Origin: Candidatus Omnitrophota bacterium | GTDB lineage: Bacteria; Omnitrophota; Gorgyraeia; Zapsychrales; Fredricksoniimonadaceae | Length of the DNA: 64,000 bases | Reading direction: 5' to 3' | NCBI GenBank assembly: GCA_015232565.1 | Contig: JADFZK010000001.1 | Span: 13,160-77,159, forward strand | Shown here: piece after piece, positions 6,849 to 27,493 of the stretch | Numbering within the stretch: position 1 is the first letter of the stretch | Layout of the letters: the number at the start of each line of letters is the position of its first letter | Made by a program: the position numbers and the translations under genes | Notes under the pieces: model-generated | The model's database searches: none | Told to the model about the DNA's origin: nothing | Seen by the model: only the letters and a program-made list of their open reading frames with translations

Positions 6849-9800
6849 ATGAATGTTAATCATTATAAGGGAACTGTTGTTTACCGTTCTATCTGCAGTT
6901 TGCTGATTCTTAGTTTTATTTTCTCCGCGGTTGTCCCGCCGCGGAGTGGGTGGGCCCAGACGGTTCTTAATTTGCCGGCGCCGGGCACCATGGTTATGGC
7001 CAGCCCGGCTTTTATGCCAGTGCTGATCAAGGGGCTCAAGGTTCATCCGGAAAATCCTTTACTGTTCGATTTTATTCTGGATACCGGTTCGACTAAGCTG
7101 GCAACCAATGAAAAGCCCGGCCTGGATGTGAATGGCCCTGAATTCAAGGCCGAGACCCAAAAGCTCATTAAATATTTTCTGGCTTCGCTCACTATTAAGG
7201 AAGACGACCTGTGGGTTAATCTTTCGCCTTTTGAGCGTGACCGCATGATCGCCGCAGACCTGGGCCAGACCGAACTGGGCCGCGATATGCTGGCGCAGGA
7301 TTATATGCTCAAGCAATTAACCGCGTCCATGATCTATCCCGAGAAAGAGCTGGGCCAGGCTTTCTGGGCCAAAGTTTATGCCCAGGCCCAGGAACAGTTT
7401 GGCACCACCGACGTGCCAGTGGACACTTTTAACAAAGTCTGGATCGTAGCCGATAAAGCCCAGGTAATGGAGCACAATAACGCAGCCTATGTAGTGGGTT
7501 CCCATTTAAAAGTAATGCTGGAAACAGATTATTTAGCGACGTCGACCAGTGCAATGCCAACCCGGGGACATGATGCCCCGCCAGCGGATACCAATGAGCG
7601 GGGCTTCGTGTCCCCCCGCCGGTTGCCAACCTCTCAACCAACGAATGTGAAAGCAACCCAGGTCTCAACCCCAACGCCAAACCCCACAAAAGTTCCAAAC
7701 GACATAAACGACACAAACAATACAAATGCGACAACCCCCGAAAACAACATCGCCAAAAACATCTTACGCGAGATCGTGCTCCCGATGATCGAGAAAGAAG
7801 TGAATGAAGGCCAGAATTTTGCCCCGTTGCGCCAGATGTTCTTCTCGATGATCATGGCTTCGTGGTACAAGCAGGCTTTAAAAGGCGCGCTTTTGAACCA
7901 GGTGTATACCAACAAAGCCAAAACTGGCGGGGTGCAGGTTGACGATCAGTCGGCCAAAGAAAAGATCTACGAACAATATCTTCAGGCGTATAAGAAAGGT
8001 GTATTTAACTACATTAAAGAAGATGCCGGGCTGGCGCTTAACCCCGGCGCGGATCCCGAGGCCCAACAGTCAATTCCCCGAAAGTATTTCTCCGGCGGGC
8101 TAATAGTAATGAAGAATTTTGCGGGCAAAGGTCCCACCATTGTGCCGTTTGACGGCGCCGCCGTCGTTAGGGACTTTAGTGCGGCTGTCAATGTGCGGGC
8201 CAGGATGGATCAGTCTCAGAGCATAGACCGTGAAACTTTGGAAAGTGTTCAGATCAGCTTAAATGAATTGATGGGAAAACCTGTTACTCGTGACGTATTG
8301 CAAAATGAACTTACGTCAAAAGCCCGTCTTTCTGGAGTGTCTGTGGATGATGGCATTATAAAAGGCGTAAAAGCAGGCACAATAGTAGTTCGCGAGTCGG
8401 GCATTGAGTATGGTTTTACGCAGGATGAATTGAACAAGCTTGCCGGAAACCCGAACCAGATGACTTTCACGGTTATGTTGTTGTCAAAAGGGAAGCTGGC
8501 GTCATTTTTGGTTGTTATACCCAGAGGCACGGCGGTGGATATTGCCACAATAGCTTTGGATGAAGCCTTCAAGAAGTATGATAATGCAAGAATGTCGCTG
8601 GAGCAAATACAGAGCGGTGGCCGTGGATATACTGAGGAGCAGCAAAAGCCGGGCAGGAAAAAAGATCAGGATCTTCAAGATGAGAGGGATAAGATGGCTG
8701 AGGGTTTAGCAGAAATGATTCCTAGAGTTAAAGTTGTTTTATCTTTGGGAGGCTCAGTTGCTTGGAACATTAGGGATATCGTCGGCGAAAAGGTAAAGCC
8801 TTATCTGTCATGCTTTGTAACGTTCACCCGGAAAGATGGGCGGGTTTATGACATTACGGTTAATGGGGAAAAAGTAGTTGTTCCAATTTCGAGGCACTTG
8901 CATCCATATTGGGGAAATTTAGTTGCCATGCATCCTGATTTACGCCCGCTGGAGCATGTAAAATTGAGCGTGGCGCTGGCTGGTTATGCTGTTACTGAGC
9001 ACGATATTAATGACATCACGACCGACGAGTCGCAGAAATCCTTAATAGATGCAGGTTACAATAAGCTGACGGAAGGCCAGTCGTTGAGGTTCGCTTTAAA
9101 ACCGGGGACAATGGGTATAATGCTGGATATTGAACGAAGTGGGAAGACCAGGCGGGAAAGAGTTTATTTGTCGGTTAATAACCATTACCAGTTAATTGTA
9201 GCGTCCGAGTTGATCGGAGGAGTGCGTCAGGTTACTTTGGATGCATATGGGTTTGTCGATTTGGATGCGCTTCTGGAATCGGATGTGAGTGTGGAAATCC
9301 AATGGAATAATGGCGAAATTGTTGTGCATAGTTCCCGGAGATCGGCAGATCCGCTCTTGGTTAAAAGAAGCGTGTTTTTCCCGGATAATAATTCTGGAGA
9401 ACAGGAAGTTATTGTTTCAAGCAGTAGTGGTAAATCTGAGCGGACAATTATTAACGATGATTTCCGGGAAGGCAAGGGTAATGAATACCAGGTGAACGGT
9501 GCAAAAGTGCTTCTCGTGTCTAGTGGTTCAAATCCGGATAAACGACATGTTGTAGTAAGCGCGTTCGCAGACGTTAAGCCGGGTTCAGGTCAGGAATTTA
9601 CTGTTCAACTTGTTGATCCTTCCATGCAAACCTGGGAGTCGCTGGCTCTCGAGATCCGCGCGCAATTTCTTGCCGCCCTCAAGAGCGATCTGGAGCGCGC
9701 GCTACCAGGTGATATTACGAACATTGGGTTGAGAGGACGTTATGATTACGAAGGCTATGGTATAGCGTTTCCAGCTATTGCTAAGCTTATCCAAGAAGGA

Positions 9801-10628
9801 ACGGTTGCAGCTGATAGTTTATTCAACGCCATAACAGAGTATATTGTTAAACAACATCCAGTGGAAGGTGAGCAATCCATCAGAATTCGGTGGCCAGCAA
9901 AGGACGAAGGAAAGTCGGGCATAAGGCAGTGGGAAAGAGGGATTAGCATGTTGGAAGGTGGGAATCTTAGTCCAAGAGTCTGGACAGGAACGAGTGGGTC
10001 TGATGGACAAGTGGCCATGCTATGGGAGAATATCGCGGATGATGCTCCTTTGCAATACGTGAAAGACTGGCTGGCGAAAGAATCTGCCAAACAGCCGACC
10101 GCCGCTACTGCAGGTGTAGAAGTTAGTCCAGTGGGAAAAGCCGCATTCTCTGGTTCTAATGCTCAACCATTAGTTTTTCAAGAGTACCAGGATATGTTTA
10201 GAGCGTACTCAAATTCGGATGGGATCCGTAGGAAGTGGTTAAGAATTACAACCAAAAATAATGAGGTTGTTAGAGTTCAGGTCATCGGAATGAATGATAA
10301 TTGGATCTTTGGCTTGGATGATAAGCGAGAAAGAGTATATATTACTAGAAACGACTTCAAAAGCGCCACCAGTGATCCTTCTGCGAATCAGGCTTTTTCT
10401 CCCGGCGGTATCGAGCTTAATGCCAAAAGAATGGGTTTGGAGGTGGCAAAGGACGGCAAAGGTGTTAATATGACTATTGACCCGGCTATGGTCGCCGATT
10501 TTGAGCGCGGGGATTTCTCCGGCGTGGTTCCGGTTATTCTGCAGATCGTGCCGATCCGTAATCCGTTGGTTACTTTGGGCCTGGGGGGCGATGCGCCGGC
10601 TGAGAAACTGATACAGGGAAAAGCATGA
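6849..10628 (+). CDS. Very large secreted or membrane-anchored protein of unknown function (1259 aa)
   Basis: Strong AAGGAG ribosome-binding site 7 nt upstream. N-terminal hydrophobic signal/anchor (ICSLLILSFIFSAVV). Low-complexity Thr/Pro/Asn-rich linker (TPTPNPTKVPNDINDTNNTNATTPENN). A single LDTGST motif. I recognise no domain. Confidence 0.85.
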   Translation: MNVNHYKGTVVYRSICSLLILSFIFSAVVPPRSGWAQTVLNLPAPGTMVMASPAFMPVLIKGLKVHPENPLLFDFILDTGSTKLATNEKPGLDVNGPEFKAETQKLIKYFLASLTIKEDDLWVNLSPFERDRMIAADLGQTELGRDMLAQDYMLKQLTASMIYPEKELGQAFWAKVYAQAQEQFGTTDVPVDTFNKVWIVADKAQVMEHNNAAYVVGSHLKVMLETDYLATSTSAMPTRGHDAPPADTNERGFVSPRRLPTSQPTNVKATQVSTPTPNPTKVPNDINDTNNTNATTPENNIAKNILREIVLPMIEKEVNEGQNFAPLRQMFFSMIMASWYKQALKGALLNQVYTNKAKTGGVQVDDQSAKEKIYEQYLQAYKKGVFNYIKEDAGLALNPGADPEAQQSIPRKYFSGGLIVMKNFAGKGPTIVPFDGAAVVRDFSAAVNVRARMDQSQSIDRETLESVQISLNELMGKPVTRDVLQNELTSKARLSGVSVDDGIIKGVKAGTIVVRESGIEYGFTQDELNKLAGNPNQMTFTVMLLSKGKLASFLVVIPRGTAVDIATIALDEAFKKYDNARMSLEQIQSGGRGYTEEQQKPGRKKDQDLQDERDKMAEGLAEMIPRVKVVLSLGGSVAWNIRDIVGEKVKPYLSCFVTFTRKDGRVYDITVNGEKVVVPISRHLHPYWGNLVAMHPDLRPLEHVKLSVALAGYAVTEHDINDITTDESQKSLIDAGYNKLTEGQSLRFALKPGTMGIMLDIERSGKTRRERVYLSVNNHYQLIVASELIGGVRQVTLDAYGFVDLDALLESDVSVEIQWNNGEIVVHSSRRSADPLLVKRSVFFPDNNSGEQEVIVSSSSGKSERTIINDDFREGKGNEYQVNGAKVLLVSSGSNPDKRHVVVSAFADVKPGSGQEFTVQLVDPSMQTWESLALEIRAQFLAALKSDLERALPGDITNIGLRGRYDYEGYGIAFPAIAKLIQEGTVAADSLFNAITEYIVKQHPVEGEQSIRIRWPAKDEGKSGIRQWERGISMLEGGNLSPRVWTGTSGSDGQVAMLWENIADDAPLQYVKDWLAKESAKQPTAATAGVEVSPVGKAAFSGSNAQPLVFQEYQDMFRAYSNSDGIRRKWLRITTKNNEVVRVQVIGMNDNWIFGLDDKRERVYITRNDFKSATSDPSANQAFSPGGIELNAKRMGLEVAKDGKGVNMTIDPAMVADFERGDFSGVVPVILQIVPIRNPLVTLGLGGDAPAEKLIQGKA

Positions 10629-12339: not shown

Positions 12340-12344
12340 TCGTA

Positions 12345-12367
12345 GGGGCCGACTTTATGTCGGCCCG
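12345..12367 (+). other. Small stem-loop ggggccGACtttatGTCggcccg directly after the gap stop codon
   Basis: An 8-bp stem around a TTTAT loop. A near-identical motif with a compensated base pair occurs at 15418-15440. Confidence 0.45.
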
Positions 12368-12409
12368 TCGTATTGACGATAATGTCTTTGACGAATTGTT
12401 TGCAAAAAA

Positions 12410-12447
12410 GAGCGCTCCCGGCAACAGGAGCGCTCTTTTTATTTTTC
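12410..12447 (+). terminator. Rho-independent terminator downstream of gap
   Basis: Stem agagcgctcc...ggagcgctct followed by TTTTTATTTTT. An A-run precedes it, so it could act in both directions. Confidence 0.8.
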
Positions 12448-12481
12448 AAGGATTCTTGAAAAATAACTCCCACAGCTGCCT

Positions 12482-12499
12482 GGCGGCCAATTGGCCGCC
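12482..12499. promoter_or_regulatory. Perfect 18-bp palindrome GGCGGCCAATTGGCCGCC
   Basis: Read directly. It lies about 20 bp upstream of the -35 element of the second DUF4160 promoter. Confidence 0.3.
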
Positions 12500-12518
12500 G
12501 GAGCGAAGGGAGTACTTA

Positions 12519-12547
12519 TTGAATTTTTTGTAGCCATCTGCTATATT
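12519..12547 (+). promoter_or_regulatory. Sigma70-like promoter for the second DUF4160/DUF2442 pair (TTGAAT-N17-TATATT)
   Basis: TTGAAT at 12519-12524 and TATATT at 12542-12547. The GGAGAAAG ribosome-binding site and the ATG at 12582 follow. Confidence 0.45.
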
Positions 12548-12581
12548 TTGACTGGATAATAAATTACTTGGAGAAAGAAAT

Positions 12582-12842
12582 ATGCCCGAAATAGCTCGGT
12601 TTTACGGAATTATTATTTCCATGTTCTATGATGACCACAATCCGCCGCATTTTCATGCACGGTATGGAGATGAGAGCGTTGTTATACGAATTGATACACT
12701 AAGCGTTCTGGAAGGTAATGTTTCGGCCAGAGCATTAGGTCTTATTATCGAATGGGCGGCTCAGCATAAAGCAGAATTAATGGAAGACTGGAGCTTGGCT
12801 AAACAAAATCAGGTTCCCAAGAAAGTTGCTCCGTTAAAGTAA
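12582..12842 (+). CDS. DUF4160 domain protein (second copy)
   Basis: MPEIARFYGIIISMFYDDHNPPHFHARYGDES... has the same fold signature as the 2229-2465 gene. Confidence 0.8.
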   Translation: MPEIARFYGIIISMFYDDHNPPHFHARYGDESVVIRIDTLSVLEGNVSARALGLIIEWAAQHKAELMEDWSLAKQNQVPKKVAPLK

Positions 12843-12852
12843 GGACTGAATA

Positions 12853-13119
12853 ATGTATTACGATGTAAAATCCGCACAATATTGCGATGGTTATAAAATC
12901 CTGCTTTCTTTTGCGGATGGTAAAGGCGGCATCGTTGATTTTCAGCCGTATCTTCAGAAAGGCGGCGTTTTTGAGAAATTTAAAGATTTAAACTTTTTTA
13001 AGAATTTTCACATTAATGAAGAGGTTGGAGTTTTAAGTTGGGAAAATGATATTGATATCGCTCCTGAAACAATCTATTCCAAGGCAACAAAGTTACCAAT
13101 TCCCCAATGGGTTGCGTAA
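12853..13119 (+). CDS. DUF2442 domain protein (second copy)
   Basis: 88 aa, MYYDVKSAQYCDGYKILLSFADGKGGIVDF.... An AAGGA ribosome-binding site precedes it. Confidence 0.8.
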   Translation: MYYDVKSAQYCDGYKILLSFADGKGGIVDFQPYLQKGGVFEKFKDLNFFKNFHINEEVGVLSWENDIDIAPETIYSKATKLPIPQWVA

Positions 13120-13928
13120 TTAACAAGATTATTTTTGGCATTTCTCTGAGCATGTTGTTTTGTGCTCACTCCTCGATGGCAGCAGATAATAGTCGCGAAG
13201 ATCAAAAGTGCAAGGTATTTGCTTCGCCGTGTTGTTCTGATGGTTATGTTTGTGCCATGAGTGCGCCTGAATGTAATATGTCCGGGGACTTTAGTTGTAA
13301 GGACAGCCATCCGCCGTCGTTGACTCGGGTATATTGTGAGTATCACAAAGCGTCTAAAGATTATTCCCGGGCCGGATGTTATGAAAGACCCTTGTATGGG
13401 GGTGCGAATTGTAAGGAATATTGTGATTATTGGAAATCCCAGGATTGTAAAAGCACTTTTTCAGAACAACAATTAACCGCGGGATGGGATCCTTTTGACA
13501 TAAACAAATGGCAGGAGAATTGCGGGGACATGGACTGTGAATGTATCAAGACTTCTCGTTGTATTCCCGATGGGGAAAGGCTTGGTGCAAATGGCATGAG
13601 TGCCTGTTGTCCTGGTCTGGCGGATCTTCCGCTTAAGGAATGGGATCCAGCCGGGGCACAGGTGCGCTTTTGTACGAGCAAGTGCGGGGACGGGATATGC
13701 GCACTTCCTGAGACCAAGCTCAATTGCCAGCAAGATTGCGATGACACTTGCATAAAAGAGAAGTGTTTCTACGACGAACAATTCAAAAGATGCCATAAAG
13801 AGGGCGTTCTTTTCTCGAGAAAGCCGTTATCTGCCGGCGGTGTTGATCTACAGCCATGCTGCTATGGATTGAAAGAAACGCCCGCTGGCGAGATGAGTGT
13901 TTGTGTAAGAAAGGATGCAGAAGATTAA
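13107..13928 (+). CDS. Cysteine-rich secreted protein of unknown function (about 28 Cys in about 247 mature residues)
   Basis: Signal peptide MGCVINKIIFGISLSMLFCAHSSMA. Three CC-containing motifs: PCCSDGYVC, ACCPGLADLP and PCCYGLKETP. The start overlaps the DUF2442 stop by 13 nt. Confidence 0.7.
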   Translation: MGCVINKIIFGISLSMLFCAHSSMAADNSREDQKCKVFASPCCSDGYVCAMSAPECNMSGDFSCKDSHPPSLTRVYCEYHKASKDYSRAGCYERPLYGGANCKEYCDYWKSQDCKSTFSEQQLTAGWDPFDINKWQENCGDMDCECIKTSRCIPDGERLGANGMSACCPGLADLPLKEWDPAGAQVRFCTSKCGDGICALPETKLNCQQDCDDTCIKEKCFYDEQFKRCHKEGVLFSRKPLSAGGVDLQPCCYGLKETPAGEMSVCVRKDAED

Positions 13929-14363
13929 ATGACCGGTTGGAAAACTTTCTTTTATTGTTTGGGGCTGGGCTTTCTGGTTTGCAGTGCCATGTATTTGTCG
14001 GTAGCGCTCGCCCCGTTCGAGCGGCATGATGATTATTTGCTGGAAACTTCCGATCTGCCCCGGGATTGCCGCGCCTCTTTTGTTTACCGGCTGAGCATGG
14101 AGAGCGGGCGTCCGCTGGCTTCCGAAATCGGCGCCTATCAGAGCAATGCAACCTCCCGGAAGAAGCGTCCAACCCAGCTGACGCTAACTGTTGAAAATCA
14201 TGCCTGGATTATTATCCGTCGTAGATTAAGTTTTCTGCAGGTCAGGCTGGGGAGTAAGGAACTGTTTTCGGGGCGTACCCAGGAGAATGATCCAGGGTGT
14301 AGGCGTTCTGATATCAAGGATATTGAGAAAAGGCTCGGCAAAGGACCGGAATGTTTTGACTGA
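13929..14363 (+). CDS. Hypothetical membrane-anchored protein
   Basis: Its ATG immediately follows the TAA of the Cys-rich gene. One N-terminal transmembrane helix (FFYCLGLGFLVCSAMYLSVAL). Its 3' 138 nt overlap the convergent methyltransferase gene, which lowers confidence. Confidence 0.4.
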   Translation: MTGWKTFFYCLGLGFLVCSAMYLSVALAPFERHDDYLLETSDLPRDCRASFVYRLSMESGRPLASEIGAYQSNATSRKKRPTQLTLTVENHAWIIIRRRLSFLQVRLGSKELFSGRTQENDPGCRRSDIKDIEKRLGKGPECFD

Positions 14364-14879
14364 CCAGTGGTTAAGGTGCCCCGGCGTGTTGCCTCGTTCC
14401 CCGAGGTATTTCCCGCGAAGGACGTTGAGAGCCCGCCATAATGGTTCCCGCGGGACCGAGAGAAGGACGTGGGATTTCGCTGTTAGGCAAAGAGCCTCAA
14501 GGGCTTTCCGTGGATCTTCAAGATGTTCCAGGACCTCGCAACAGACCATCAGGTCTGCTGAATCTGATGTGCTGATATTGTAAATGCTTTTTGCGTAGAA
14601 GTATATCGCTGTGTTATGGAACAGGGAGCGGGCTTGTTCGATGATGAGGGGAGATACGTCACAGGCCTTGATGTTCTGATAGCCCCATAGGGAAAGACGG
14701 GTGCTGAGATAGCCCTCTCCGCAGCCCGCCTCGGTTACCGATCCGATTCGGGCGCGAACAGGTTCCAAAGTGTCCTTTATAGCTGATAAGAATCTGTTGG
14801 TCAGATGACGGACGATTGGATTCCCGGATTCATATTTGTTGCAGATATTCCCTGCAATGAGGCCGTTATCAATAATCAT
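14226..14879 (-). CDS. Class I SAM-dependent methyltransferase (type 11/12-like)
   Basis: SAM-binding motif VTEAGCGEGYLS, and an acidic post-motif-II segment CCEVLEHLEDP. Confidence 0.8.
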   Translation of the reverse strand: MIIDNGLIAGNICNKYESGNPIVRHLTNRFLSAIKDTLEPVRARIGSVTEAGCGEGYLSTRLSLWGYQNIKACDVSPLIIEQARSLFHNTAIYFYAKSIYNISTSDSADLMVCCEVLEHLEDPRKALEALCLTAKSHVLLSVPREPLWRALNVLRGKYLGERGNTPGHLNHWSVKTFRSFAEPFLNILDIRTPTPWIILLGTPRKQFLTPQPDLQKT

Positions 14880-15417
14880 ACGGGCACTTCTTTTTTAGAA
14901 GGGGTGGTTGCATGTTCTGATCTTCTGATTGGTCATCACGGGATATTTTGTATTGTTTTGGCCGAAAAGGGCATGAAATATCTTTAAGAATTTGCCGGTT
15001 CATGATCCGAGTCGAGACATTGATGATGTTACACTGAATGGCCTACTATTTCGATGGCCAGGATGTTTTTTTAAATTTATTAGAATTCCCGGAGTTAATC
15101 AAGTCATTTTATTGAATCTTATTGTGTTCTGGCGATTGTTTTCAACGGCTTGCGTCAATCTGACGTGACACTTCTTTAGGAGCTGATCTATTACTATTCG
15201 GCAGGCCAGGGTGAGTGTTGATTAGTTTGACAACTTGCAGACAATTGTTTCGATCCTGGAGCACAACACCACTTTGGGTTAACAAGAATGCGTTGATCAG
15301 AAGTGCTGTTTTTAATTGGGAATTTGACAAAGCGTCTTTGGTATAGCAATATTGGTTATTATGTATGACCAATTTGGACAGCAATTTCGTCGGTTATAGA
15401 TATTCGGGACATGAATT

Positions 15418-15440
15418 GCGGCGGACTTTATGTCCGCCCG
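15418..15440 (+). other. Small stem-loop gcggcGGACtttatGTCCgcccg (second copy of the motif at 12345-12367)
   Basis: A 7-bp stem around a TTTAT loop. It differs from copy 1 by a compensated C:G to G:C swap. It lies in the AT-rich leader region of the glycan island. Confidence 0.4.
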
Positions 15441-15633
15441 GGTGGTTATAATTACGGACAAGGACAATCTGGCCCGGGGCATTTCCGGCCGGACAGCGGT
15501 CAATATGGATCTGCCGCTTAAGGCCTTAATGTTGGGTGAGAAATAGCGCGACATAAGCAGGCACGTGTCCCCTGAATTGGAACGTTAACACATCGAATTC
15601 GCTGGAATTAAAAAAGCATTAACCCTAAAGAAT

Positions 15634-17928
15634 ATGCTTAACACATTAACCCTTCATACTCGAATTCTCCTGGGCATAATTCTTGCGGCGGGTGTTGTGG
15701 CTTTTGCGGTGGCTCACGAGAAGCTTACTTTTGCTAACCAACCCATATTTGAACTCTCTCGAACTACGTCCTGGCAAGCCAGCAAGAACCTGATCTACTA
15801 TGGCTCGTCCGGCCCCGTGGTGGAAACACTGAATTCCCATGCTTTGTGGAAGAAATTCGTCCTTAGTTTCAGCCTGGCCAATCCGTTGACCGCCGGCGTG
15901 GTCTATGATATCCGCTCCGAGGGCTGGTACCGGTTTTTTATGTTCAACCGGCCGCAAAGAACCTTGATAGCGGGGCAGAATATAAATGGCGCTATTCGTA
16001 TTGACCGTTCGTGGCCGTTGGAACTTCCTGCCGGTGAGGATCTAGTTTTGCCGTTAACGCTGGAAGTGGATGCCGCGCAGGCAGTTTTGCGCCTGGCGGG
16101 TAAACCGCTGGCATCTTTTGAGGCCGCCATAAAAGTGCCGGCGCGCTTTGGTTTGTATACCGAGCAGGCTACGGTGCGTAATAATGTTTTCCTGAATATT
16201 TTGGTAACCGGTGAGCTGGCCGACGGCCGGGCGGTGAGCCTGGGGCCGGAAAGTTATCAGGACTTCGACCGGGGCAAGCCGCTGGCGCGGCTTTGGACTG
16301 TTCCGGGAATAGGTGCGGTTATTTTGTTGTATGTGCTGGCTATTCTTTTTCTGGTTGTGTTGAAAAATAGCGGACCCGGGGCAATTGCGGTTGGGGGGAA
16401 CCATCCGGGCCGGGCATTGGATATGGCAGGGTTGATCCTGTATGCTTTAGCCGGAGCGGTGGTTTTTGTGAAGGCCTGGCAGTTGGGGCACAAGGTGGCC
16501 TTCTATCCGGCTTACTGGCAGACCATGCCGGCGCTGTTATGCGTTATGTCGATGGATATTCTTCTTCTGGGCTTAAGCTGGTTCTATGCCCGCCGGTTCA
16601 TTCGGCTTTCTCCTTTACTGGTCTTTGTGGTGCTGCCGGTTTTTCTCTATGGGGTGCATATTATCAACCTGAACCTTTTGCATTGGCCGGATCCCTGGTT
16701 CTTAAGAGGAGTGCTTGGCTTGCTGGCCTTACCGATATTGTTTATCAGCAAAGAGCAGGTGGCGGAGTTAAAGAATATTGCCGGCTCGATCTTCAAGGTT
16801 AACCGGTATAACGGGCTGGTTTTATTGTGGCTGGTTTATGTCTCATTATATTTCCTGGAATATAATTTCCGTATGCCCCGCCCGCTTTTTGGCGACGAGG
16901 CCAACCTGTGGTTTGCCGCCGCCCGGAACATGATCCACAATGGCGTCCTGGAGGCTCATTTAGCCGGCTATCCGGCGGGTGGTTACCATCCTTTCGGGAT
17001 ACCTTTTTTGACGGCTATTCCCGGCTTGCTCTGGGGTAGCGGTGATGAAAGCCTGATTTTCTTCATGCCGTTGTTCAATATTATCGTGTTCACGGTTTTC
17101 TTATTGCGTTTACGGCAGCAGCCGGGCCTTTTTCTTTTTTTCTACGCGGCTTCTTTCGTGGTATGTGATTACGCCGGGTTGATCGGTGCTTTGTTGTTCC
17201 GCTTGGTTTACGGGGAAGGTTGGTCGGGGCTTTATTTTCTGGTGATGGGCGCCGAGATCATCCGTTTGAGCCGTAACGGCAAGATCACCGACTGGCGTTG
17301 CTGGCTTGGGCTGGGCATGGCGGCCGGGCTGACTCTGCTTACGAAAAGGCCGGTATATTACTGGGGCGCGATTTTTCTTTTGACCGCGGCGGTTTGCTAT
17401 TTTAGAACGGGCTGTTCGCTCCGGCTTTTGCGTAATTTTCTGGCCGGGGTGGCGGTGTTCTTTTTGCCGGTTGGCGCCTGGGGGTGGCTGGCGCACCAGC
17501 ATGGTATCGGGTCGGCCGTCTCGGTAACGGGGACTATGTTTGGCCCGGGCAGTTGGCATTTTAACTTGGGGATACTGGACTGGCGGGCCATGATGGCCTG
17601 GTCGTATGTTAGTCCGCTGGCCGGTTATTATTTGCTGGGCGCTCTGGTGCTTTGCCTGGCGGCCTGGCGGCGCAGTGCCAGTGTGCATTTATTCCCGCCG
17701 TTGACCCTGCTCATCTTTGTGACCGGATACTATGTCTTTGGTTTTCAAAGCGATTGGACCAGTTCTTCGGTTAGGTACTACATGCCGGCGGCTTTATTGA
17801 TCTTATACCTGGCCGGGCTGGCTCTGGAGGACTGGTTACAGCGTGCGGCCGGTCGGGCGCCAAAGGCGGCGGTGTTCTTATACGGAGTGGCAGGCCTGGC
17901 AATTATTTCCGGGATGGTTATCCTATGA
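15634..17928 (+). CDS. GT-C superfamily polytopic membrane glycosyltransferase (ArnT/PMT-like) with an N-terminal periplasmic domain of about 230 aa
   Basis: 764 aa. After one N-terminal transmembrane helix and a soluble domain come at least 12 hydrophobic helices. The FGDEANLW motif sits in the first periplasmic loop, as in GT39/GT83 enzymes. Confidence 0.75.
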   Translation: MLNTLTLHTRILLGIILAAGVVAFAVAHEKLTFANQPIFELSRTTSWQASKNLIYYGSSGPVVETLNSHALWKKFVLSFSLANPLTAGVVYDIRSEGWYRFFMFNRPQRTLIAGQNINGAIRIDRSWPLELPAGEDLVLPLTLEVDAAQAVLRLAGKPLASFEAAIKVPARFGLYTEQATVRNNVFLNILVTGELADGRAVSLGPESYQDFDRGKPLARLWTVPGIGAVILLYVLAILFLVVLKNSGPGAIAVGGNHPGRALDMAGLILYALAGAVVFVKAWQLGHKVAFYPAYWQTMPALLCVMSMDILLLGLSWFYARRFIRLSPLLVFVVLPVFLYGVHIINLNLLHWPDPWFLRGVLGLLALPILFISKEQVAELKNIAGSIFKVNRYNGLVLLWLVYVSLYFLEYNFRMPRPLFGDEANLWFAAARNMIHNGVLEAHLAGYPAGGYHPFGIPFLTAIPGLLWGSGDESLIFFMPLFNIIVFTVFLLRLRQQPGLFLFFYAASFVVCDYAGLIGALLFRLVYGEGWSGLYFLVMGAEIIRLSRNGKITDWRCWLGLGMAAGLTLLTKRPVYYWGAIFLLTAAVCYFRTGCSLRLLRNFLAGVAVFFLPVGAWGWLAHQHGIGSAVSVTGTMFGPGSWHFNLGILDWRAMMAWSYVSPLAGYYLLGALVLCLAAWRRSASVHLFPPLTLLIFVTGYYVFGFQSDWTSSSVRYYMPAALLILYLAGLALEDWLQRAAGRAPKAAVFLYGVAGLAIISGMVIL

Positions 17929-18959
17929 TGCGTTTGCCGGTTTTCAATCTAGCCCGGGCGGTGCCGGCTTCGCTGGTACTGGCGCTTATTGATCTGGTGG
18001 TTTTTATTCTGGCTTACCGGTCATTTAAAGAAGTTTCTTTAAGCCTGGTGGCGTCGCGGGCTTGTTCGATGAGTATTAATTACGTCTTTATAAAGAAGGC
18101 GGTGTATTTCTCCGGCCGCAAGAATTATTGGGTTTTTGGCAAGTATCTGTTGTCGGTTATTTTCTTCAGCCTGGTTTCGTACGCGGGAATGGTCTTGCTG
18201 ATGGAACAGCTGGCGGTCAGCGTGGTGGCCGCCAAGCTGATGGTAGAGACGGTGCTTTTCACGTTGACCTTTCTGGTCCAGCGGGACCTGGTGTTCGTTA
18301 CCGACGGAGCCCGGCAGAAGACGGATTGGGACCGGTATTACCAAAAGCCGTACCAGGCGGCCCGTTTTTCAAGGAGGATCACGCAAAAGCATATTCTGGG
18401 GAAGATCCGGAAGTATGCGCCCAAGGACCCGTCGGGGCTTGCGATAATTGAACTGGGAGGGGCGAACAGCTGTTTTATTGACAGTATCCTTAAGGCCATT
18501 CGCCCGCGCGAGTACCATGTGGTCGACAATAACGCGGTGGGACTATTGAAACTTAAAGAGCGTACGGCAGGTTTGAGCAATGTGTTCTTGTATCATCAGG
18601 ATGTCCTGACGTTCCAGGCGCCCAAAAAGCTGGACCTGGCTTTTAGTACCGGCTTGATCGAGCATTTTAGTGCCAAAGATGTTGAGCGGGTTGTAAAAGC
18701 CCATTTTTCTGCAGTTAAGCCCGGCGGGGTGGTTTTGTTGACTTTTCCCCGGGCTACCTGGCTTTATCAGCTCACGCGTTTCTGGGCGGTATTGTTCCGG
18801 TTATGGATATTCACCGATGAGAAGCCTTTGGATAAAGAAGAGATCCTGTCCTTGCTGAGCGAACAGGGCGAGATCTTGTACGCTACCACCATATGGCCGA
18901 TATTTTTAACTCAAATGCTGGTGGTCATCAGGAAAACAGCCTATGATGCTGAGGTGTAA
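17925..18959 (+). CDS. Fusion protein: GtrA-family membrane domain plus class I SAM-dependent methyltransferase
   Basis: ATGA overlap with the upstream gene. The N-terminal roughly 120 aa carry four transmembrane helices with the GtrA signature SMSINYVFIKKAVYF. The C-terminal part has IELGGANSCF, LDLAFSTGLIEHF and KPGGVVLLTFP. Confidence 0.8.
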   Translation: MMRLPVFNLARAVPASLVLALIDLVVFILAYRSFKEVSLSLVASRACSMSINYVFIKKAVYFSGRKNYWVFGKYLLSVIFFSLVSYAGMVLLMEQLAVSVVAAKLMVETVLFTLTFLVQRDLVFVTDGARQKTDWDRYYQKPYQAARFSRRITQKHILGKIRKYAPKDPSGLAIIELGGANSCFIDSILKAIRPREYHVVDNNAVGLLKLKERTAGLSNVFLYHQDVLTFQAPKKLDLAFSTGLIEHFSAKDVERVVKAHFSAVKPGGVVLLTFPRATWLYQLTRFWAVLFRLWIFTDEKPLDKEEILSLLSEQGEILYATTIWPIFLTQMLVVIRKTAYDAEV

Positions 18960-18967
18960 GGATTGGA

Positions 18968-19684
18968 TCAGAATACTGCCGGCGGGATCTGGTCCAGAGG
19001 AATGCCAGCGGGTGGTTCCTGGGGGCATTGACCCAGCTTGAAGCAACAGGCAAGCGCGATAGCCAGGGCTTGTTTCTGGGCGAACTGGATGTTCTGAAAG
19101 AGTTTCTCGGCCTGGGTGTCGGTGGTGGTGTCACGGCCGGAGAATATTTGCTGGTAGGTACGCGAGGTCAGCATATATTTAACGCTGGCCAGGGGGTCGA
19201 GCTTAACGGCGTCGCTCATCAGCATATACGAACGTTCATAATCATGGGTTTGATAAAGGGTGAGGCCGAGGTTAAATTTCGACCAGAACAGGGCGGGGTT
19301 TAAATAATAAGCTTTCTGAAAGTTTTCGGCGGCGGCAGCCGGGTTGCCTGAATGGTATTCACAGACACCGTTAAAGGTGTAAGCTTCGGGAATTTTGGGC
19401 ATTGCCGTAACCAGGTTCTGATAGTATGATCTGTATTCCTGCCATTCGGCGGCGGTGACTGCCCGGCGGGAAAACAACAGCTCCTGGAGCGCAGTAAAGC
19501 CGGGCATATTGAAATTCAGGCTGGTGATCTCGGCATTCTTTTTGGTCAGGGCGCGTTGATGCGCGATCCTGGCTAAAGGTGCGGAGGTGCTGTCTTTGGC
19601 AGTGTGATCCACGCACCACAAAAGTATTAAAGCCAGGGAAAAGAAGGCGGCGGTCAGCAGGGAGTATTTTTTTATTGGGCGCAT
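18968..19684 (-). CDS. Secreted TPR-like repeat protein
   Basis: Signal peptide MRPIKKYSLLTAAFFSLALILLWC, and helical repeats of the form AAENFQKAYYLNPALFWSKFNLGLTLYQTHDYERSY. It is the only minus-strand gene in the island. Confidence 0.7.
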   Translation of the reverse strand: MRPIKKYSLLTAAFFSLALILLWCVDHTAKDSTSAPLARIAHQRALTKKNAEITSLNFNMPGFTALQELLFSRRAVTAAEWQEYRSYYQNLVTAMPKIPEAYTFNGVCEYHSGNPAAAAENFQKAYYLNPALFWSKFNLGLTLYQTHDYERSYMLMSDAVKLDPLASVKYMLTSRTYQQIFSGRDTTTDTQAEKLFQNIQFAQKQALAIALACCFKLGQCPQEPPAGIPLDQIPPAVF

Positions 19685-19698
19685 GGGTGAATTATACT

Positions 19699-21120
19699 AT
19701 GTTTAAAATCAATAGGAACAGTTTCTTTACCGGCTTTTCTCCGGTCTGGGCGGCCATTTTGCTTAGTGCGCTCTATTGGCTGTACCTTATGCCCATCACC
19801 TTTCCCTTAATGGTCAATGATTCTTTGGGGTATCGGGATTTGGGCCAGCGGATAATGTCGCATGGCGTGTTCTCTTATTTGAATGGCGGAGTGAATCGGG
19901 AACCGCTTTATCCTTGTTTCCTGGCGCTGGCTATGTGGCTGGGGAAGCTGGTTCGCATGGATTATCAGCTCGTGCAGTATGTTATGCAATTTACCCTGCT
20001 TTTGGCGACCCAGTTCATTATGGTGGAAGTTCTGCGGTGGTTAAAGATCAATAAATGGATCATTGCCGGCACGGTGCTTTATTTTGGTTTCTCCCCGGCG
20101 GTAATTGGCGCCGCGGCCAGCGGATGGTCGGAGGTGCTTACCTTTCCCCTGGGTATCGGGGTCATTTTTATATTGTGCCAGTTTTGGGAAGCTCTGGCGC
20201 CGGACGGGAAGCACAGATTCAAGCTTGCGGTTACCGCGGCGGCGCTTTGCTTTATTATGTGCCTGGTGAAAAGTGTATTTGAATATGTAGCGATCTTGCT
20301 GGTGGTCCTGTTGTTCGTCCTGGCTTTTCTGGCTTTGGACCGCAAGAGATATCTGGCGCCATTGATCGTTTTCACGCTGGTCCTTTTTGGCGGGATACTT
20401 TCTTATAAAACGGCCAGTTATTTTGCTAATGGAGAGTTTACACTGAGTCAGCAGAGTGCGTTTGGCAAGTACGCGTTCTATGCCAGCACGGTTAGCAAAA
20501 CGCGACCGTTCACCATGAAAGATGTTAAATCGGGTTTACTGAATGCTACCGGTGGTTCGCTGTGCGACCGCTGGGATCCGGAGGGTTGCGCCAGATGGAA
20601 ATTGACCGTGGTCGACGGGATAGCTTTAGAAAAGCAGAAAGAATTGGCCGGCCGTAAGGATAAAGAAAGCGTGCTGGGCGGATTGATCGTCCAGAACCTG
20701 ACCGCGCATCCCTTCCGGTTTGCGGCGTTATATGGCACTGAACTGATCGGGATGTTCTTTTGGGAGTCGTCCCGCGAGGGTTTTGTGGTGTTCCCGGCAT
20801 TGGTGGTTCGCATTTTGAAGAATCCTTTCTGGGAGGTGTGGATCATTTATATCGTCGGGATCCTGACCTTGAGCGCGGTTGCCCTGGGGGCGGGTTATTG
20901 TTGGCGTCGTTTCTCAAAAGTGAGCTTGCTTCAGGACCGGGCCTTTATATTTCTGGTATTTTCCGGGCTGGTCGTGTTTTCTTTTCTGGGGGGTACGGCC
21001 TTGATATTCTTGCTTAAAAGATATGTGTATCCGTTCGTTCCCGTGTATCTGGTGATCATCGGGTGGGCCATTCAGCAGGTTTTCCTACAAAAGGCGGGAT
21101 ATGGATCTGAAACCAAATAA
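19699..21120 (+). CDS. GT-C family membrane glycosyltransferase (PMT_2/ArnT-like)
   Basis: Start taken at the internal Met MFKINRN.... The longer ORF-track start would overlap the TPR gene. It has about 11 transmembrane helices and an N-terminal loop NDSLGYRDLGQRI...NREPLYP. TATACT lies directly upstream of the ATG. Confidence 0.8.
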   Translation: MFKINRNSFFTGFSPVWAAILLSALYWLYLMPITFPLMVNDSLGYRDLGQRIMSHGVFSYLNGGVNREPLYPCFLALAMWLGKLVRMDYQLVQYVMQFTLLLATQFIMVEVLRWLKINKWIIAGTVLYFGFSPAVIGAAASGWSEVLTFPLGIGVIFILCQFWEALAPDGKHRFKLAVTAAALCFIMCLVKSVFEYVAILLVVLLFVLAFLALDRKRYLAPLIVFTLVLFGGILSYKTASYFANGEFTLSQQSAFGKYAFYASTVSKTRPFTMKDVKSGLLNATGGSLCDRWDPEGCARWKLTVVDGIALEKQKELAGRKDKESVLGGLIVQNLTAHPFRFAALYGTELIGMFFWESSREGFVVFPALVVRILKNPFWEVWIIYIVGILTLSAVALGAGYCWRRFSKVSLLQDRAFIFLVFSGLVVFSFLGGTALIFLLKRYVYPFVPVYLVIIGWAIQQVFLQKAGYGSETK

Positions 21121-22093
21121 AGCGCCGTTGATCTCGGTGGTGTTTTCTTTTCGTAACGAGGCTTTGGGCATTGCCGAACTGGTTAAACGCTGCCGCAAGG
21201 TAATGGCGGAGTTGCGTTCCCGGGGCAGGATCAGTAATCATGAACTGATCTTTGTTAATGACGCTTCCACGGACAATTCGGTTTTTATTCTGATGGAGCT
21301 GGCCGCGGAATTGCATGATATACGGATCCTGAACATGTCCCGTAATTTCGGGGTGGCTCCGTGTGTAATGGCCGGGCTGGCTTATGCCCGGGGCGAGGTC
21401 GTGGTGTATATGGACGCCGACCTGCAGGATCCGCCGGAGATCATTCCCGAGATGCTGGCGGCCTGGCAGGCGGGTGGTGTGGATGTGGTACATACCGTGC
21501 GGCGCTCGCGGCAGGGTGAGCCGGCCTTGAAGTTATGGGTGACGGGGATAGGTTATGCGATATTGAATCGTTATTGCGCGGTCAAGATCCCGAAGGAAGC
21601 CGGGGATTTCAAACTGCTTTCGCGCCGGGTGGTGGATCATTTGTTGACGCTTAAAGAGCAGAATCCTTTTATGCGCGGGCTGGTGTCCTGGGTGGGGTTC
21701 CGGCAGGTCTTTATTTCGTACGACCGCGCGGCCCGTTTTAGCGGCGCCAGCAAATTCTTCGTGCTGAGCCGTAAAGTTATCAGCAACTTTTTTAATTCGG
21801 CTATTGTGAACTTCTCGGCGGTACCCTTGCAGATCGCTTCTTACCTGGGGCTCACGGCGATCTTTGTTGACCTTTTCTTTATCGGGCATGTCTTGATCGA
21901 AAAATTAGCGGGACGTGCTATTCCCGGCTGGACGGCCATTATGACCATAGTGTTATTCATCGGCGGGATACAGCTTTTCTGTGTGGGCATGATCGGGCTG
22001 TATTTGAATGCCGTGCATGAACAGTCCAAGATGCGGCCGCGGTATATTGTTGAGTCAACGTATGGCTTTCCCGGGGAGAATGGCGGTGCGTAA
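21101..22093 (+). CDS. GT2 polyprenyl-phosphate sugar synthase (ArnC/DPM1/GtrB-like)
   Basis: Motifs ISVVFSFRNE, VNDASTDNS and DADLQDPPEIIPEML, followed by two C-terminal transmembrane helices as in ArnC and GtrB. Confidence 0.85.
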   Translation: MDLKPNKAPLISVVFSFRNEALGIAELVKRCRKVMAELRSRGRISNHELIFVNDASTDNSVFILMELAAELHDIRILNMSRNFGVAPCVMAGLAYARGEVVVYMDADLQDPPEIIPEMLAAWQAGGVDVVHTVRRSRQGEPALKLWVTGIGYAILNRYCAVKIPKEAGDFKLLSRRVVDHLLTLKEQNPFMRGLVSWVGFRQVFISYDRAARFSGASKFFVLSRKVISNFFNSAIVNFSAVPLQIASYLGLTAIFVDLFFIGHVLIEKLAGRAIPGWTAIMTIVLFIGGIQLFCVGMIGLYLNAVHEQSKMRPRYIVESTYGFPGENGGA

Positions 22094-23114
22094 CCGGTAT
22101 TTATTATTGAAGGCCAAGCTTTTGGCCCATGCCATCTGGACCGGCAAGCTCTCCTTGCGCAAGGTCATTAATGTCCTGGTTTGCAGTGCGGCGTTCACTC
22201 TGCGTCGGACGCGCTCCGGTGCGGCGCCTTTTATCCTGAGCCTGGAGGTCGGCAATGAGTGCAATGCCAATTGCCTTTTTTGCCGGGACGCCAAAGGCCG
22301 GATCTATGATACCGATCCTAAAGCTTTGCCCCTGGGCGGTATAAGTAAGGGCGTGATGCCCTTTGAAATGGCGGCCGATCTTATCCGGCAATGCTCAAAA
22401 GATTCTTTAATAGCGGTCTTATATACCAACGGCGAGCCCTTGCTTTACAAGGATCTGCCGCGGCTTATCCAGGCTTGTTCCCGGGTGAGATTGCTTTCCA
22501 TGATCGCGACCAACGGGCTTTTGCTGAACGAGAAGAACATTACGGAAATGCTCTCGGCCGGGATCGATTTTATTAAAGTGCAAATGAGCGGTTTTACCCA
22601 GGACGTTTATGCCGTGCAGGTACGCTTTGGCAATGTGGAGCGGCTCAAAGATAATATCCGGCTGTTGGCCCGCAAGCGGGATGAAATGAAATGCCCCACG
22701 GTGTTGATGCTGGACTTTATTGCGTACAGTTACAATTCTCATCAATTGCCCGACGTGCGGGCTTTTTGCCGTGAGCTGGGAGTGTCGCTTAATATCCGTC
22801 CCGGGAATCCGCGCGGAGGCCTGGAGGGCCGGGAGCCGGAGCTTTCGGCGGAGGCTTTGCCTTTGCCGGGCGGCTGTGACTGGCCTTGGAAAGGCCTGCA
22901 GGTTAATTTTAATGGTGAGGTCTTAATGTGTTGCGACGGAGTGACCTTTAGCGGCAGCCAGCCCTATGCCGTGTTCCGTCCCGGTGATCCGGTGGCGGTT
23001 ATCTGGAACGGAGCAAAGGCGCGCCAGGCACGGGCAACGCTGGCCACTCAAGGCCGCGGAGCCATTCCCATCTGCGCCCAGTGTTACCGCAAAGACCTGG
23101 CCTTCAAATGGTAG
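22080..23114 (+). CDS. Radical SAM protein with a C-terminal SPASM/twitch-like cysteine cluster
   Basis: CNANCLFC (CxxxCxxC) near the N-terminus. C-terminal cysteines MCCDGVTFSG...CAQCYRK. GGGGAGA ribosome-binding site before the ATG at 22080. Confidence 0.8.
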   Translation: MAVRNRYLLLKAKLLAHAIWTGKLSLRKVINVLVCSAAFTLRRTRSGAAPFILSLEVGNECNANCLFCRDAKGRIYDTDPKALPLGGISKGVMPFEMAADLIRQCSKDSLIAVLYTNGEPLLYKDLPRLIQACSRVRLLSMIATNGLLLNEKNITEMLSAGIDFIKVQMSGFTQDVYAVQVRFGNVERLKDNIRLLARKRDEMKCPTVLMLDFIAYSYNSHQLPDVRAFCRELGVSLNIRPGNPRGGLEGREPELSAEALPLPGGCDWPWKGLQVNFNGEVLMCCDGVTFSGSQPYAVFRPGDPVAVIWNGAKARQARATLATQGRGAIPICAQCYRKDLAFKW

Positions 23115-23202
23115 TTCTCACTGAGCCTGTCGAAGTTTCTTTTGATCTTTTATTCCTCTTTAGATGGAAAATAGCGTTAGATCTACTACACAAGAGATCG
23201 CT

Positions 23203-24891: not shown

Positions 24892-24902
24892 TTGATCAGC
24901 GC

Positions 24903-24932
24903 TTGCGGCATAAAGTATATTCTGTGATATAA
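24903..24932 (+). promoter_or_regulatory. Candidate promoter for metF (TTGCGG-N18-TATAAT)
   Basis: TATAAT at 24927-24932, with the ATG 10 nt downstream and no Shine-Dalgarno sequence. Confidence 0.35.
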
Positions 24933-24942
24933 TCGCGCCATT

Positions 24943-26917: not shown

Positions 26918-27493
26918 ATGGACGAGCGAGAATTCGAATTGATCAATATCATCGGCGGTGAGCTGGGGGCCAATCAAAGGGACCTTTCCCGTCAGATGAA
27001 CCTGTCTTTAGGCATGACCAACATGCTTATCCGCCGCCTTATCACCAAAGGCTACCTGCGCATCAAACAGCTTAACAAGAAGAAGGTCGAGTATCTTTTA
27101 ACGCCGCGCGGTTTCTCGGAGAAAATGCGCAAGTCGGTGCGTTATACCATGAAGACCATTGGTTCAATAGGGCTGATTCGCAGAAGTATCTCCCGTTTAT
27201 TAAGCGAACTATATGCCGAAGGCACGCGCAAGTTTTATGTGCTTGGCAGTTCTGATCTTACGCTTCTGATCGAAATGGTTGTCCGGGAAGAGGTCTTTCA
27301 GGGCTCTGAGCTGGTTCATGTTACCGAGCCGCTACAGGCAAAGGGCGATGGCGTCCTTTTGGTGTGCCGCGAGCAGTCCGAACCGGTGGCGCTGGAAGGT
27401 GTGCGTGCGGTAAATGTGGTGGAAGAACTGGCTAAAGACGAGCTCTTCGCCGGGCACCTGAGCCCGGTGCCAGCGGGGGTCCTTAATGGCTGA
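26918..27493 (+). CDS. Winged-helix (MarR-like) transcriptional regulator with a C-terminal domain of unknown function
   Basis: The N-terminal roughly 70 aa, ELINIIGGELGANQRDLSRQMNLSLGMTNMLIRRLITKGYLRI, form a wHTH. Confidence 0.7.
   Translation: MDEREFELINIIGGELGANQRDLSRQMNLSLGMTNMLIRRLITKGYLRIKQLNKKKVEYLLTPRGFSEKMRKSVRYTMKTIGSIGLIRRSISRLLSELYAEGTRKFYVLGSSDLTLLIEMVVREEVFQGSELVHVTEPLQAKGDGVLLVCREQSEPVALEGVRAVNVVEELAKDELFAGHLSPVPAGVLNG

Follow-up and report, generated by a model that had tools for sequence, protein, structure and literature searches.

A cysteine-rich, putatively exported protein of a Candidatus Omnitrophota bacterium and its rare 14-cysteine domain

Background

Toxins and inhibitors classically take the form of small secreted proteins rich in disulfides, and the described kinds to which the protein discussed here can most closely be compared are the hevein-like (CBM18) domains, the knottins, the CGDG-type repeats of bacterial surface proteins (such as TIGR02232/DUF4215 of Myxococcus) and the metallothioneins. 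The protein is encoded in a stretch of 64,000 nucleotides (contig JADFZK010000001.1 of assembly GCA_015232565.1, positions 13,160 to 77,159; the whole stretch analysed is called the window) from a Candidatus Omnitrophota bacterium, by a gene that begins inside the end of a DUF2442 gene. It has 273 amino acids, carries a probable signal peptide and consists of a 14-cysteine domain, shared with a handful of other proteins, followed by three small cysteine-rich modules. The gene is real, the domain matches no curated family that was searched, and the deposited annotation of the gene omits the leader and most of the domain.

Results

The open reading frame that includes the stop codon (Table 1) is intact over 273 codons and encodes 30 cysteines, two of which (C3 and C19) fall within the N-terminal hydrophobic leader; the chain of 248 residues that would remain after the predicted cleavage contains the other 28 (11.3%), compared to 1.5% in 25 long open reading frames of the window (binomial p ~3e-16). 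Among the stop-free stretches of at least 100 amino acids in the window, this one has the highest cysteine content. In an all-against-all BLAST comparison of the stop-free frames of the loci that carry the domain, the sense frame scored 206 bits and its antisense shadow 39 bits, and the codon-usage score was best in the frame of the gene for both of its halves. Codon-level comparison with three loci gave proportions of nonsynonymous and synonymous differences (pN/pS) of 0.16/0.74, 0.20/0.69 and 0.26/0.88 (a ratio of about 0.2-0.3), and every aligned cysteine was kept, often through a change between TGT and TGC. Because homologues exist and keep the spacing of the cysteines, because pN/pS is low, and because BLAST frame scores and codon usage agree, this is a real gene on the plus strand and in the frame given. 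The initial annotation had described the same cysteine-rich reading frame with about 28 cysteines after its leader and three CC-containing strings, which are exact in the protein (PCCSDGYVC with CC at 42-43, ACCPGLADLP with CC at 167-168 and PCCYGLKETP with CC at 251-252); it had named a frameshift, coding on the other strand, or homologues without the cysteine spacing, as grounds for withdrawing the claim, and none of these applies.

Homologues were sought by two word-indexed searches of 5.8e9 proteins (one with the full protein and one with its C-terminal half), by a profile search and by a HMMER scan of 1.84e9 cluster representatives. The word-indexed search returned P0001 and P0002, the full HMMER scan added P0003, P0004 and P0005, and P0011, which is P0003 at full length, came from a cluster look-up. 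All of these relatives align to residues 33-148, within which 14 cysteines are invariant among the close members and nearly identically spaced (7,1,6,7,8,13,14,11,4,8,25,5,2 in the window protein) around a core motif of C(K/E)EYCDYW(K/T)SQxC...DPFD...W..NC....CxC. The profile E-values of the family members range from 1e-19 to 1e-56, and the cysteine spacing, the shorter motif CxEYCDYWxSQxC and a position directly after a signal peptide or membrane anchor were found throughout the family (the window protein, P0001, P0002/P0010, P0003/P0011, P0004 and P0005), which amounts to about six sequence clusters, the window protein included, among ~15 billion proteins. Locus scans of 185,579 species genomes, JGI metagenome contigs and viral contigs yielded no further relative, tblastn of plasmids and phages gave no match, and a second profile search added no cluster. 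The C-terminal half (residues 147-273) matched only its own NCBI entry in the word-indexed search; the profile, of 152 positions, lacks that half, so that the half had no HMMER search at full sensitivity. One candidate, P0006, which has BNR/kelch-like repeats, was rejected as a spurious match.

Against Pfam, NCBIfam, PHROGs and PADLOC, the window protein matched no family at the curated threshold, and P0001, P0002, P0003, P0005 and P0011 likewise had no curated family match. A match of residues 187-224 to PF10866 (DUF2704) stayed below threshold (14.6-17.2 bits versus a cut-off of 22), and PDB sequences, searched with both the protein and the profile, yielded chance-level matches only (methanol dehydrogenase light chain at E 1, calcineurin at E 0.65). 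On these comparisons, the 14-cysteine domain is best described as a new, very rare cysteine-rich domain family that belongs to no curated family searched.

Several members of the family have peculiarities of their own. The closest relative, P0004 (76-83% identical; L005, 152-466), ends early after CKEYCDY and continues into unrelated sequence, by truncation or because the contig is chimeric. P0003 (L007, 818-1274) is frameshifted, its frame resuming as KWRQNCGEMTCECI, and P0011 is the intact form. P0005 (L006, 8001-9335) contains two copies of a GKPCKTA(H/Y)DC(E/Q)G(K/R)CLV...GDNLTGRCS module and, at residues 100-140, possibly a further, incomplete copy of the helical half upstream of the full domain (ACLELCEFYSNSQ...FWDKNCPGRTC), for which the signal is weak (p 0.02-0.08). 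The gene for P0002 lies between the genes for the large and the small subunit of AcnX (L001, 479-2607), with its start overlapping the end of the large-subunit gene by 10 nucleotides, an odd place for a membrane-anchored cysteine-rich protein.

The cysteines of the mature window protein are distributed over four parts as 14 + 4 + 6 + 4, an even number in each. The first CC motif falls within the 14-cysteine N-terminal domain, and the similarity of its surroundings to either of the later CC modules (A and A') is at the level of shuffled sequences (p 0.4-0.6). Modules A and A' resemble each other beyond chance, with a Smith-Waterman score of 39 compared to 21.3 +/- 4.2 in shuffles (p ~0.005), and have the common form C-x2-[DE]G-x(n)-CC-xGL-x(n)-C with four cysteines, which occurs once in P0011 (KCVKEGEIVQNQSLRGYCCSSLTQVWDKNERIWYC) and twice in the window protein. 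Between A and A' is module B, a CGDxxC...E...C..DC mini-module that in P0002 is located N-terminal to the domain (ICGDEVCSVTEAKSCPEDC). Tandem Repeats Finder detected no repeat at the DNA level. The three CC-containing strings had been proposed to be similar motifs of one disulfide-knotted repeat domain; the strings are present, but a single repeat domain is not, as only two of the three CC motifs are duplicated, and a model of three repeats of one unit is ruled out for the first of them by the shuffle test. Judged by these scores, the protein consists of a conserved, non-repetitive 14-cysteine domain and, after it, three small modules, of which only A and A' are a true duplication. Because P0011 has one copy of module A where the window protein has two, and because P0002 carries the CGDxxC module N-terminal rather than C-terminal to the domain, the CC and CGDGxC mini-modules are best described as apparent accessory units shuffled around the 14-cysteine domain.

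The N terminus has the features of a type I signal peptide, judged by inspection: a charged n-region, a hydrophobic stretch within the range of 7-15 residues, small residues at -3 and -1, and no lipobox. Hydropathy peaks at 2.4 (mean Kyte-Doolittle) over residues 8-18, small residues lead up to the cut predicted by inspection (S, M and A at 23-25, then A26), and the residues that precede C19 (M-L-F) do not fit a lipobox. The leader aligns with that of the closest homologue, P0004 (MKMILAGIFLSMILCASFCAAED), and the typical signal peptide of the initial annotation thus stands. P0001, P0002, P0005 and P0011 have an N-terminal membrane anchor directly ahead of the cysteine-rich part, so that in all five full-length members this part follows immediately on a signal peptide or an N-terminal membrane anchor. 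From the leader and from the anchors of the homologues, the protein is predicted to be exported via Sec.

Each of the five full-length members has an even count of external cysteines (28, 14, 18, 18 and 42) and contains no CxxC or CxxCH motif, and CxC occurs only once. The even, conserved, extracytoplasmic cysteines and the lack of CxxC are the pattern of structural disulfides. The mature window protein also has 22 aromatic residues (10 tyrosine, 8 phenylalanine and 4 tryptophan), many of which are conserved, among them Y47, Y76, Y105, Y108, W109, F130 and W135. Because of the even counts, the missing CxxC/CxxCH motifs and the many conserved aromatic residues, the cysteine pattern favours structural disulfides over ligation of metal, Fe-S clusters or haem and over a metallothionein, and the 28 cysteines of the mature protein probably form about 14 disulfides. 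An AlphaFold2 model of the N-terminal domain consists of four strands followed by three helices, with low confidence (predicted local distance difference test, pLDDT, ~56).

The public annotation of this gene differs from the reading frame described above. The NCBI entry P0007 = MBF0386236.1 (HQL20_00105; a hypothetical protein of a metagenome-assembled genome, MAG, of a Candidatus Omnitrophica bacterium) has 132 amino acids that are identical to residues 142-273, and the exact sequence of 273 amino acids is not in the 15-billion-protein collection. The deposited start codon, M142, is preceded by AGGAG (13513-13517), which probably drew the gene caller to it. The deposited form drops the signal peptide and the sole conserved domain, and the long reading frame is, by its sequence features, the product that would make biological sense. 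As deposited, the protein is missed when databases are searched with its full sequence; the corrected annotation defines a small new domain family.

Table 1. Features of the cysteine-rich gene and of its surroundings, by position in the window.
Feature	Position	Strand	Remarks
Intrinsic-terminator-like hairpin ending GAPDH	12405..12440	+	14-bp stem followed by a T run; putative 5' limit of the transcribed unit
Two overlapping sigma-70-like promoter matches	12519..12560	+	9/12 each; consensus matches, putative promoter
DUF4160 gene, 86 amino acids	12582..12842	+	Pfam PF13711, E 4.6e-23
DUF2442 gene, 88 amino acids	12853..13119	+	Pfam PF10387, E 9.8e-17
Full cysteine-rich open reading frame	13107..13928	+	Open reading frame and translation; homologues; best codon score in frame, both halves
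Signal peptide, residues 1-25	13107..13181	+	n-region K7, h-region IIFGISLSMLF, c-region HSSMA; predicted cleavage between SSMA and AD
Conserved 14-cysteine N-terminal domain, residues 33-148	13203..13550	+	Common to P0001, P0002/P0010, P0003/P0011, P0004 and P0005
Internal ATG (M142), deposited start codon	13530..13532	+	Two residues ahead of invariant C144, within the conserved domain
CC module A, residues 150-190	13554..13676	+	Cysteines 152, 167, 168 and 189; kept in P0011
Module B, residues 192-220	13680..13766	+	Six cysteines; KCGDGICALPETKLNCQQDC then DDTCIKEKC
CC module A', residues 227-268	13785..13910	+	Cysteines 229, 251, 252 and 266; duplicate of A; regular-expression match
Downstream ORF144, 144 amino acids	13929..14363	+	N-terminal transmembrane helix; TAA-ATG junction with the stop of the cysteine-rich gene

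The cysteine-rich gene is preceded by two small genes, for proteins of the DUF4160 and DUF2442 families, that have been listed as a predicted toxin-antitoxin pair (PMC12654330). The ATG of the cysteine-rich gene overlaps the DUF2442 gene, with its stop codon at 13117-13119, by 13 nucleotides, no Shine-Dalgarno sequence precedes M1, and the only promoter-like sites on the plus strand before the gene are those ahead of the DUF4160 gene. Because of the overlap, the absence of a Shine-Dalgarno sequence before the gene, the location of promoter-like sites exclusively upstream and the terminator-like hairpin after GAPDH, co-transcription of the gene and translational coupling with the DUF4160/DUF2442 pair are plausible in this genome. 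Co-transcription with the toxin-antitoxin-like pair had been suggested in the initial annotation, and the layout of overlap, promoter and terminator here is consistent with it, but the association does not extend to the five other loci: neither DUF4160 nor DUF2442 is near the domain at L001, L003, L005, L006 or L025. In an all-against-all comparison of the loci, no neighbour gene was common to any two of them, so that linkage with DUF4160/DUF2442 does not characterise the family.

Downstream of the cysteine-rich gene is ORF144, whose codon score of 0.24 is the best of the six frames and which matched no family in Pfam, NCBIfam, PADLOC or PHROGs. It runs for 138 nucleotides into the 3' end of a convergent gene for a class I methyltransferase (14226-14879, minus strand), and the codon score of the methyltransferase gene is poor; ORF144 may be the fourth gene of the unit, with uncertain status.

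The third-codon-position GC content (GC3) is 0.37 in the DUF4160 gene, 0.33 in the DUF2442 gene and 0.43-0.46 in the cysteine-rich gene, versus 0.56-0.69 in the flanking genes, and the half of the cysteine-rich gene that encodes the N-terminal domain has a lower GC content than the C-terminal half. The interval between GAPDH and MetF, in which these genes are located, is 12.6 kb long in the window (12340-24942), versus 1.5 kb (7776-9283) in a related Omnitrophota locus (L020) where GAPDH is 91% and MetF 69% identical. The interval of L020 encodes a VapBC-like pair and a secreted protein of another kind, and that of the window contains the toxin-antitoxin-like pair, the cysteine-rich gene, methyltransferases, a multi-pass membrane protein of 764 amino acids, GtrA-MT, a GT2 glycosyltransferase and a radical SAM/SPASM (rSAM-SPASM) protein. 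By this comparison the interval looks like a variable hotspot, and because the L020 interval differs and the GC3 of the cassette is low, the cysteine-rich gene is in a variable segment that was probably acquired horizontally.

The contigs that carry the domain have GC contents of 36-57%, with the closest homologues on contigs of 36-41%. One of them (L006, GCA_041306005.1) has the archaeal-type neighbours TYW3 and TRM5/TYW2, and another carrier locus adjoins a gene for a CAP-domain-like protein with a tail rich in threonine, proline and glutamine. The domain thus appears to be spread over contigs of widely differing GC content, at least one of which looks archaeal.

Other features of the window were recorded on either side of the cysteine-rich gene. 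Upstream (6849-10628) is a gene for a secreted protein of 1259 amino acids without a Pfam match, which belongs to an Omnitrophota-specific family (L011, L015, L018, L019 and L022) with a conserved N-terminal part of ~420 amino acids, a conserved C-terminal part of ~60-70 amino acids and a variable middle, and with two to three tandem paralogues in several MAGs; its relatives are almost only in MAGs of Candidatus Omnitrophota, in agreement with the name given by NCBI. On the minus strand, the hairpin of the GAPDH terminator coincides with the only Rfam match, a sub-threshold one to L20_leader (12398-12523; 30.8 bits versus 58.7, E 0.0025), which is probably due to chance. The radical SAM/SPASM gene (22008-23114), ~8 kb downstream, overlaps the end of the GT2 glycosyltransferase gene, and no link between it and the cysteine-rich gene was found. 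A long cluster of the nonulosonic-acid type or for another modified sugar (25821-48625, plus strand) comprises NeuB, UDP-GlcNAc 2-epimerase, a CMP-sugar cytidylyltransferase, two DegT aminotransferases, 4,6-dehydratases, a HisF/HisH-like pair, a formyltransferase, a C-methyltransferase and an ATP-grasp protein, and is interrupted by genes for a YhcG-type nuclease (27486-28493) and a papain-like protease (28905-29648).

Discussion

The reading of the locus that is preferred here, and that is held with moderate confidence, is that the gene encodes a Sec-exported, non-enzymatic, disulfide-stabilised, modular binding scaffold outside the cytoplasm, which would be coupled locally to the promoter of the DUF4160/DUF2442 pair. 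Following export via Sec and cleavage of the leader of 25 residues, the protein would fold oxidatively outside the cytoplasm, its 28 cysteines forming 14 disulfides within four modules: the 14-cysteine domain (predicted beta-hairpins plus a helical part), a four-cysteine CC module, a six-cysteine CGDGxC module and a second four-cysteine CC module. The product would be a rigid, protease-resistant extracytoplasmic scaffold that may bind a ligand or a partner, either at the envelope or in the surroundings of the cell, in the manner of an adhesin or a lectin, rather than catalyse a reaction; no enzyme signature was found in Pfam, NCBIfam, PADLOC, PHROG or PDB sequences. Expression would be by translational coupling from the promoter of the DUF4160/DUF2442 pair, a linkage that is local and no part of what the family does.

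Several considerations weigh against the exported binding scaffold. The binding role is a speculative guess, for which the only grounds are the absence of alternatives and the conserved aromatic residues. The structural models are of low confidence, with a pLDDT of 42.5 for the full mature protein and 56.5 for the N-terminal domain; the cleavage site of the signal peptide was judged by eye; and the whole account derives from sequence and models. Many Omnitrophota are anaerobes, for which an oxidising periplasm would be an assumption, and DsbA, DsbB and VKOR were not seen among the open reading frames of the window that were scanned.

A secreted antagonistic effector, that is, a disulfide-rich toxin, antimicrobial protein or protease inhibitor for which ORF144 might be an immunity or helper factor, is an unlikely alternative. 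The secreted, disulfide-rich format is the classical one for such proteins, ORF144 begins at the stop codon, has a transmembrane helix and scores as coding, and the gene is in a variable segment of low GC3 that adjoins a toxin-antitoxin-like pair. However, no toxin, inhibitor or bacteriocin family was matched in Pfam, NCBIfam, PADLOC or PDB, four of the five homologues are anchored in the membrane rather than released, no immunity-like or other partner gene is kept across the loci, and one homologue is encoded inside an AcnX enzyme operon.

A further reading, which is entertained as decidedly doubtful, is that the 14-cysteine domain may be an undescribed disulfide-rich fold that is exchanged horizontally among Omnitrophota, other uncultivated bacteria and archaea of the same anoxic sediments or groundwater. 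The domain might then serve in cell-surface recognition or attachment during contact between organisms (for example, host binding by host-dependent nanobacteria), with the mini-modules as shuffled accessories.

That the protein is the third component of a DUF4160/DUF2442 toxin-antitoxin-like module, or dependent cargo of the same mobile cassette, is improbable. The start/stop overlap and the shared putative promoter would fit such a role, as would the GC3 of 0.33-0.46 that the three genes have in common and the presence of other toxin-antitoxin modules in the GAPDH-MetF interval of one related Omnitrophota genome, but neither DUF4160 nor DUF2442 occurs near the domain at any of the five other loci, direct contact between an exported protein and cytoplasmic toxin-antitoxin proteins is impossible, and PADLOC gave no match.

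A metal-binding or redox protein (metallothionein-like, Fe-S or zinc), with the cysteines as ligands, can be given only a slight probability. The cysteine content of 11%, the possibility that the host is an anaerobe in metal-rich redox gradients, a ZIP metal transporter gene two genes downstream at one homologue locus and an HMA P-type ATPase gene on another contig are compatible with it; nevertheless, the full-length members lack CxxC/CxxCH and have a single CxC, the cysteines are even in number in each member and module, a signal peptide or anchor is present, unlike in cytosolic metallothioneins, the 22 aromatic residues are in many cases conserved, and the metal-related genes are neither adjacent nor conserved. 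Least probable of all, and very improbable in itself, is that the real product is only the C-terminal part of 132 amino acids in the NCBI entry, as might be supposed because its start is preceded by AGGAG and M1 has no Shine-Dalgarno sequence, or that the reading frame is a decaying pseudogene, as the truncation of the closest relative and the frameshift in L007 might suggest, given that M142 is inside the conserved domain, that conservation within the family is highest in the 141 residues before it, on which selection is purifying, that the short form would leave 16 cysteines in the cytoplasm without a signal peptide, and that the reading frame is intact.

For a candidate phylum regarded as largely anaerobic, 14 putative disulfides in a bacterial protein of 248 residues are unusual, and the protein would be a demanding test of the capacity of its host for oxidative folding. 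For a protein whose role is a guess and whose structural models are of low confidence, the biological significance is modest, and nothing yet indicates a surprising mechanism.

The comparison with described systems places the scaffold among disulfide-dense exported proteins. The hevein-like (CBM18) chitin-binding domains and further small carbohydrate-binding modules rich in disulfides share with it an extracytoplasmic location, a high density of disulfides and conserved aromatic residues, and its C-x6-CC-S-x-G-Y-x-C resembles the hevein core, C-x(4,5)-CCS-x2-G-x-C, a likeness that is a lead only. In contrast to these domains, the window protein has no match to PF00187 (Chitin_bind_1) at E<=1, the serine after CC varies within the family (CCSDGY, CCLNGY, CCG-GY, CCGTSY), and the 14-cysteine domain is about three times longer, with a C-terminal half that is helical in the AlphaFold2 model. 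The knottins are likewise secreted and stabilised by disulfides, the mini-modules of the window protein have CC doublets flanked by single cysteines, and their CCxGL recalls the knottins of spider toxins. The comparison, made by cysteine framework, also brings out differences from the knottins, since the CC modules have four cysteines (C...CC...C) rather than C-C-CC-C-C, the first six cysteines of the N-terminal domain are arranged as C-CC-C-C-C, the loops, at 13-21 residues, exceed the typical length, and no family was matched.

Module B begins with CGDGxC and ends with an acidic C..DC, and it is a shuffled mini-module of exported proteins, as are the CGDG-type repeats of bacterial surface proteins; it differs from these in being a single copy and not an array, and there is no NCBIfam or Pfam match to TIGR02232 or DUF4215. 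The likeness to metallothioneins is in the high cysteine content, whereas the window protein is exported, has 11% cysteine compared to ~20-30%, has no CxxC and a single CxC, is rich in aromatic residues and has a conserved, non-repetitive pattern like that of a fold. On those membership features that can be tested, the window protein falls outside the hevein-like domains, the knottins, the CGDG-type repeats and the metallothioneins. Exported proteins with multiple disulfides are a well-known general kind, to which this one would belong; the 14-cysteine domain itself is new to the curated families searched.

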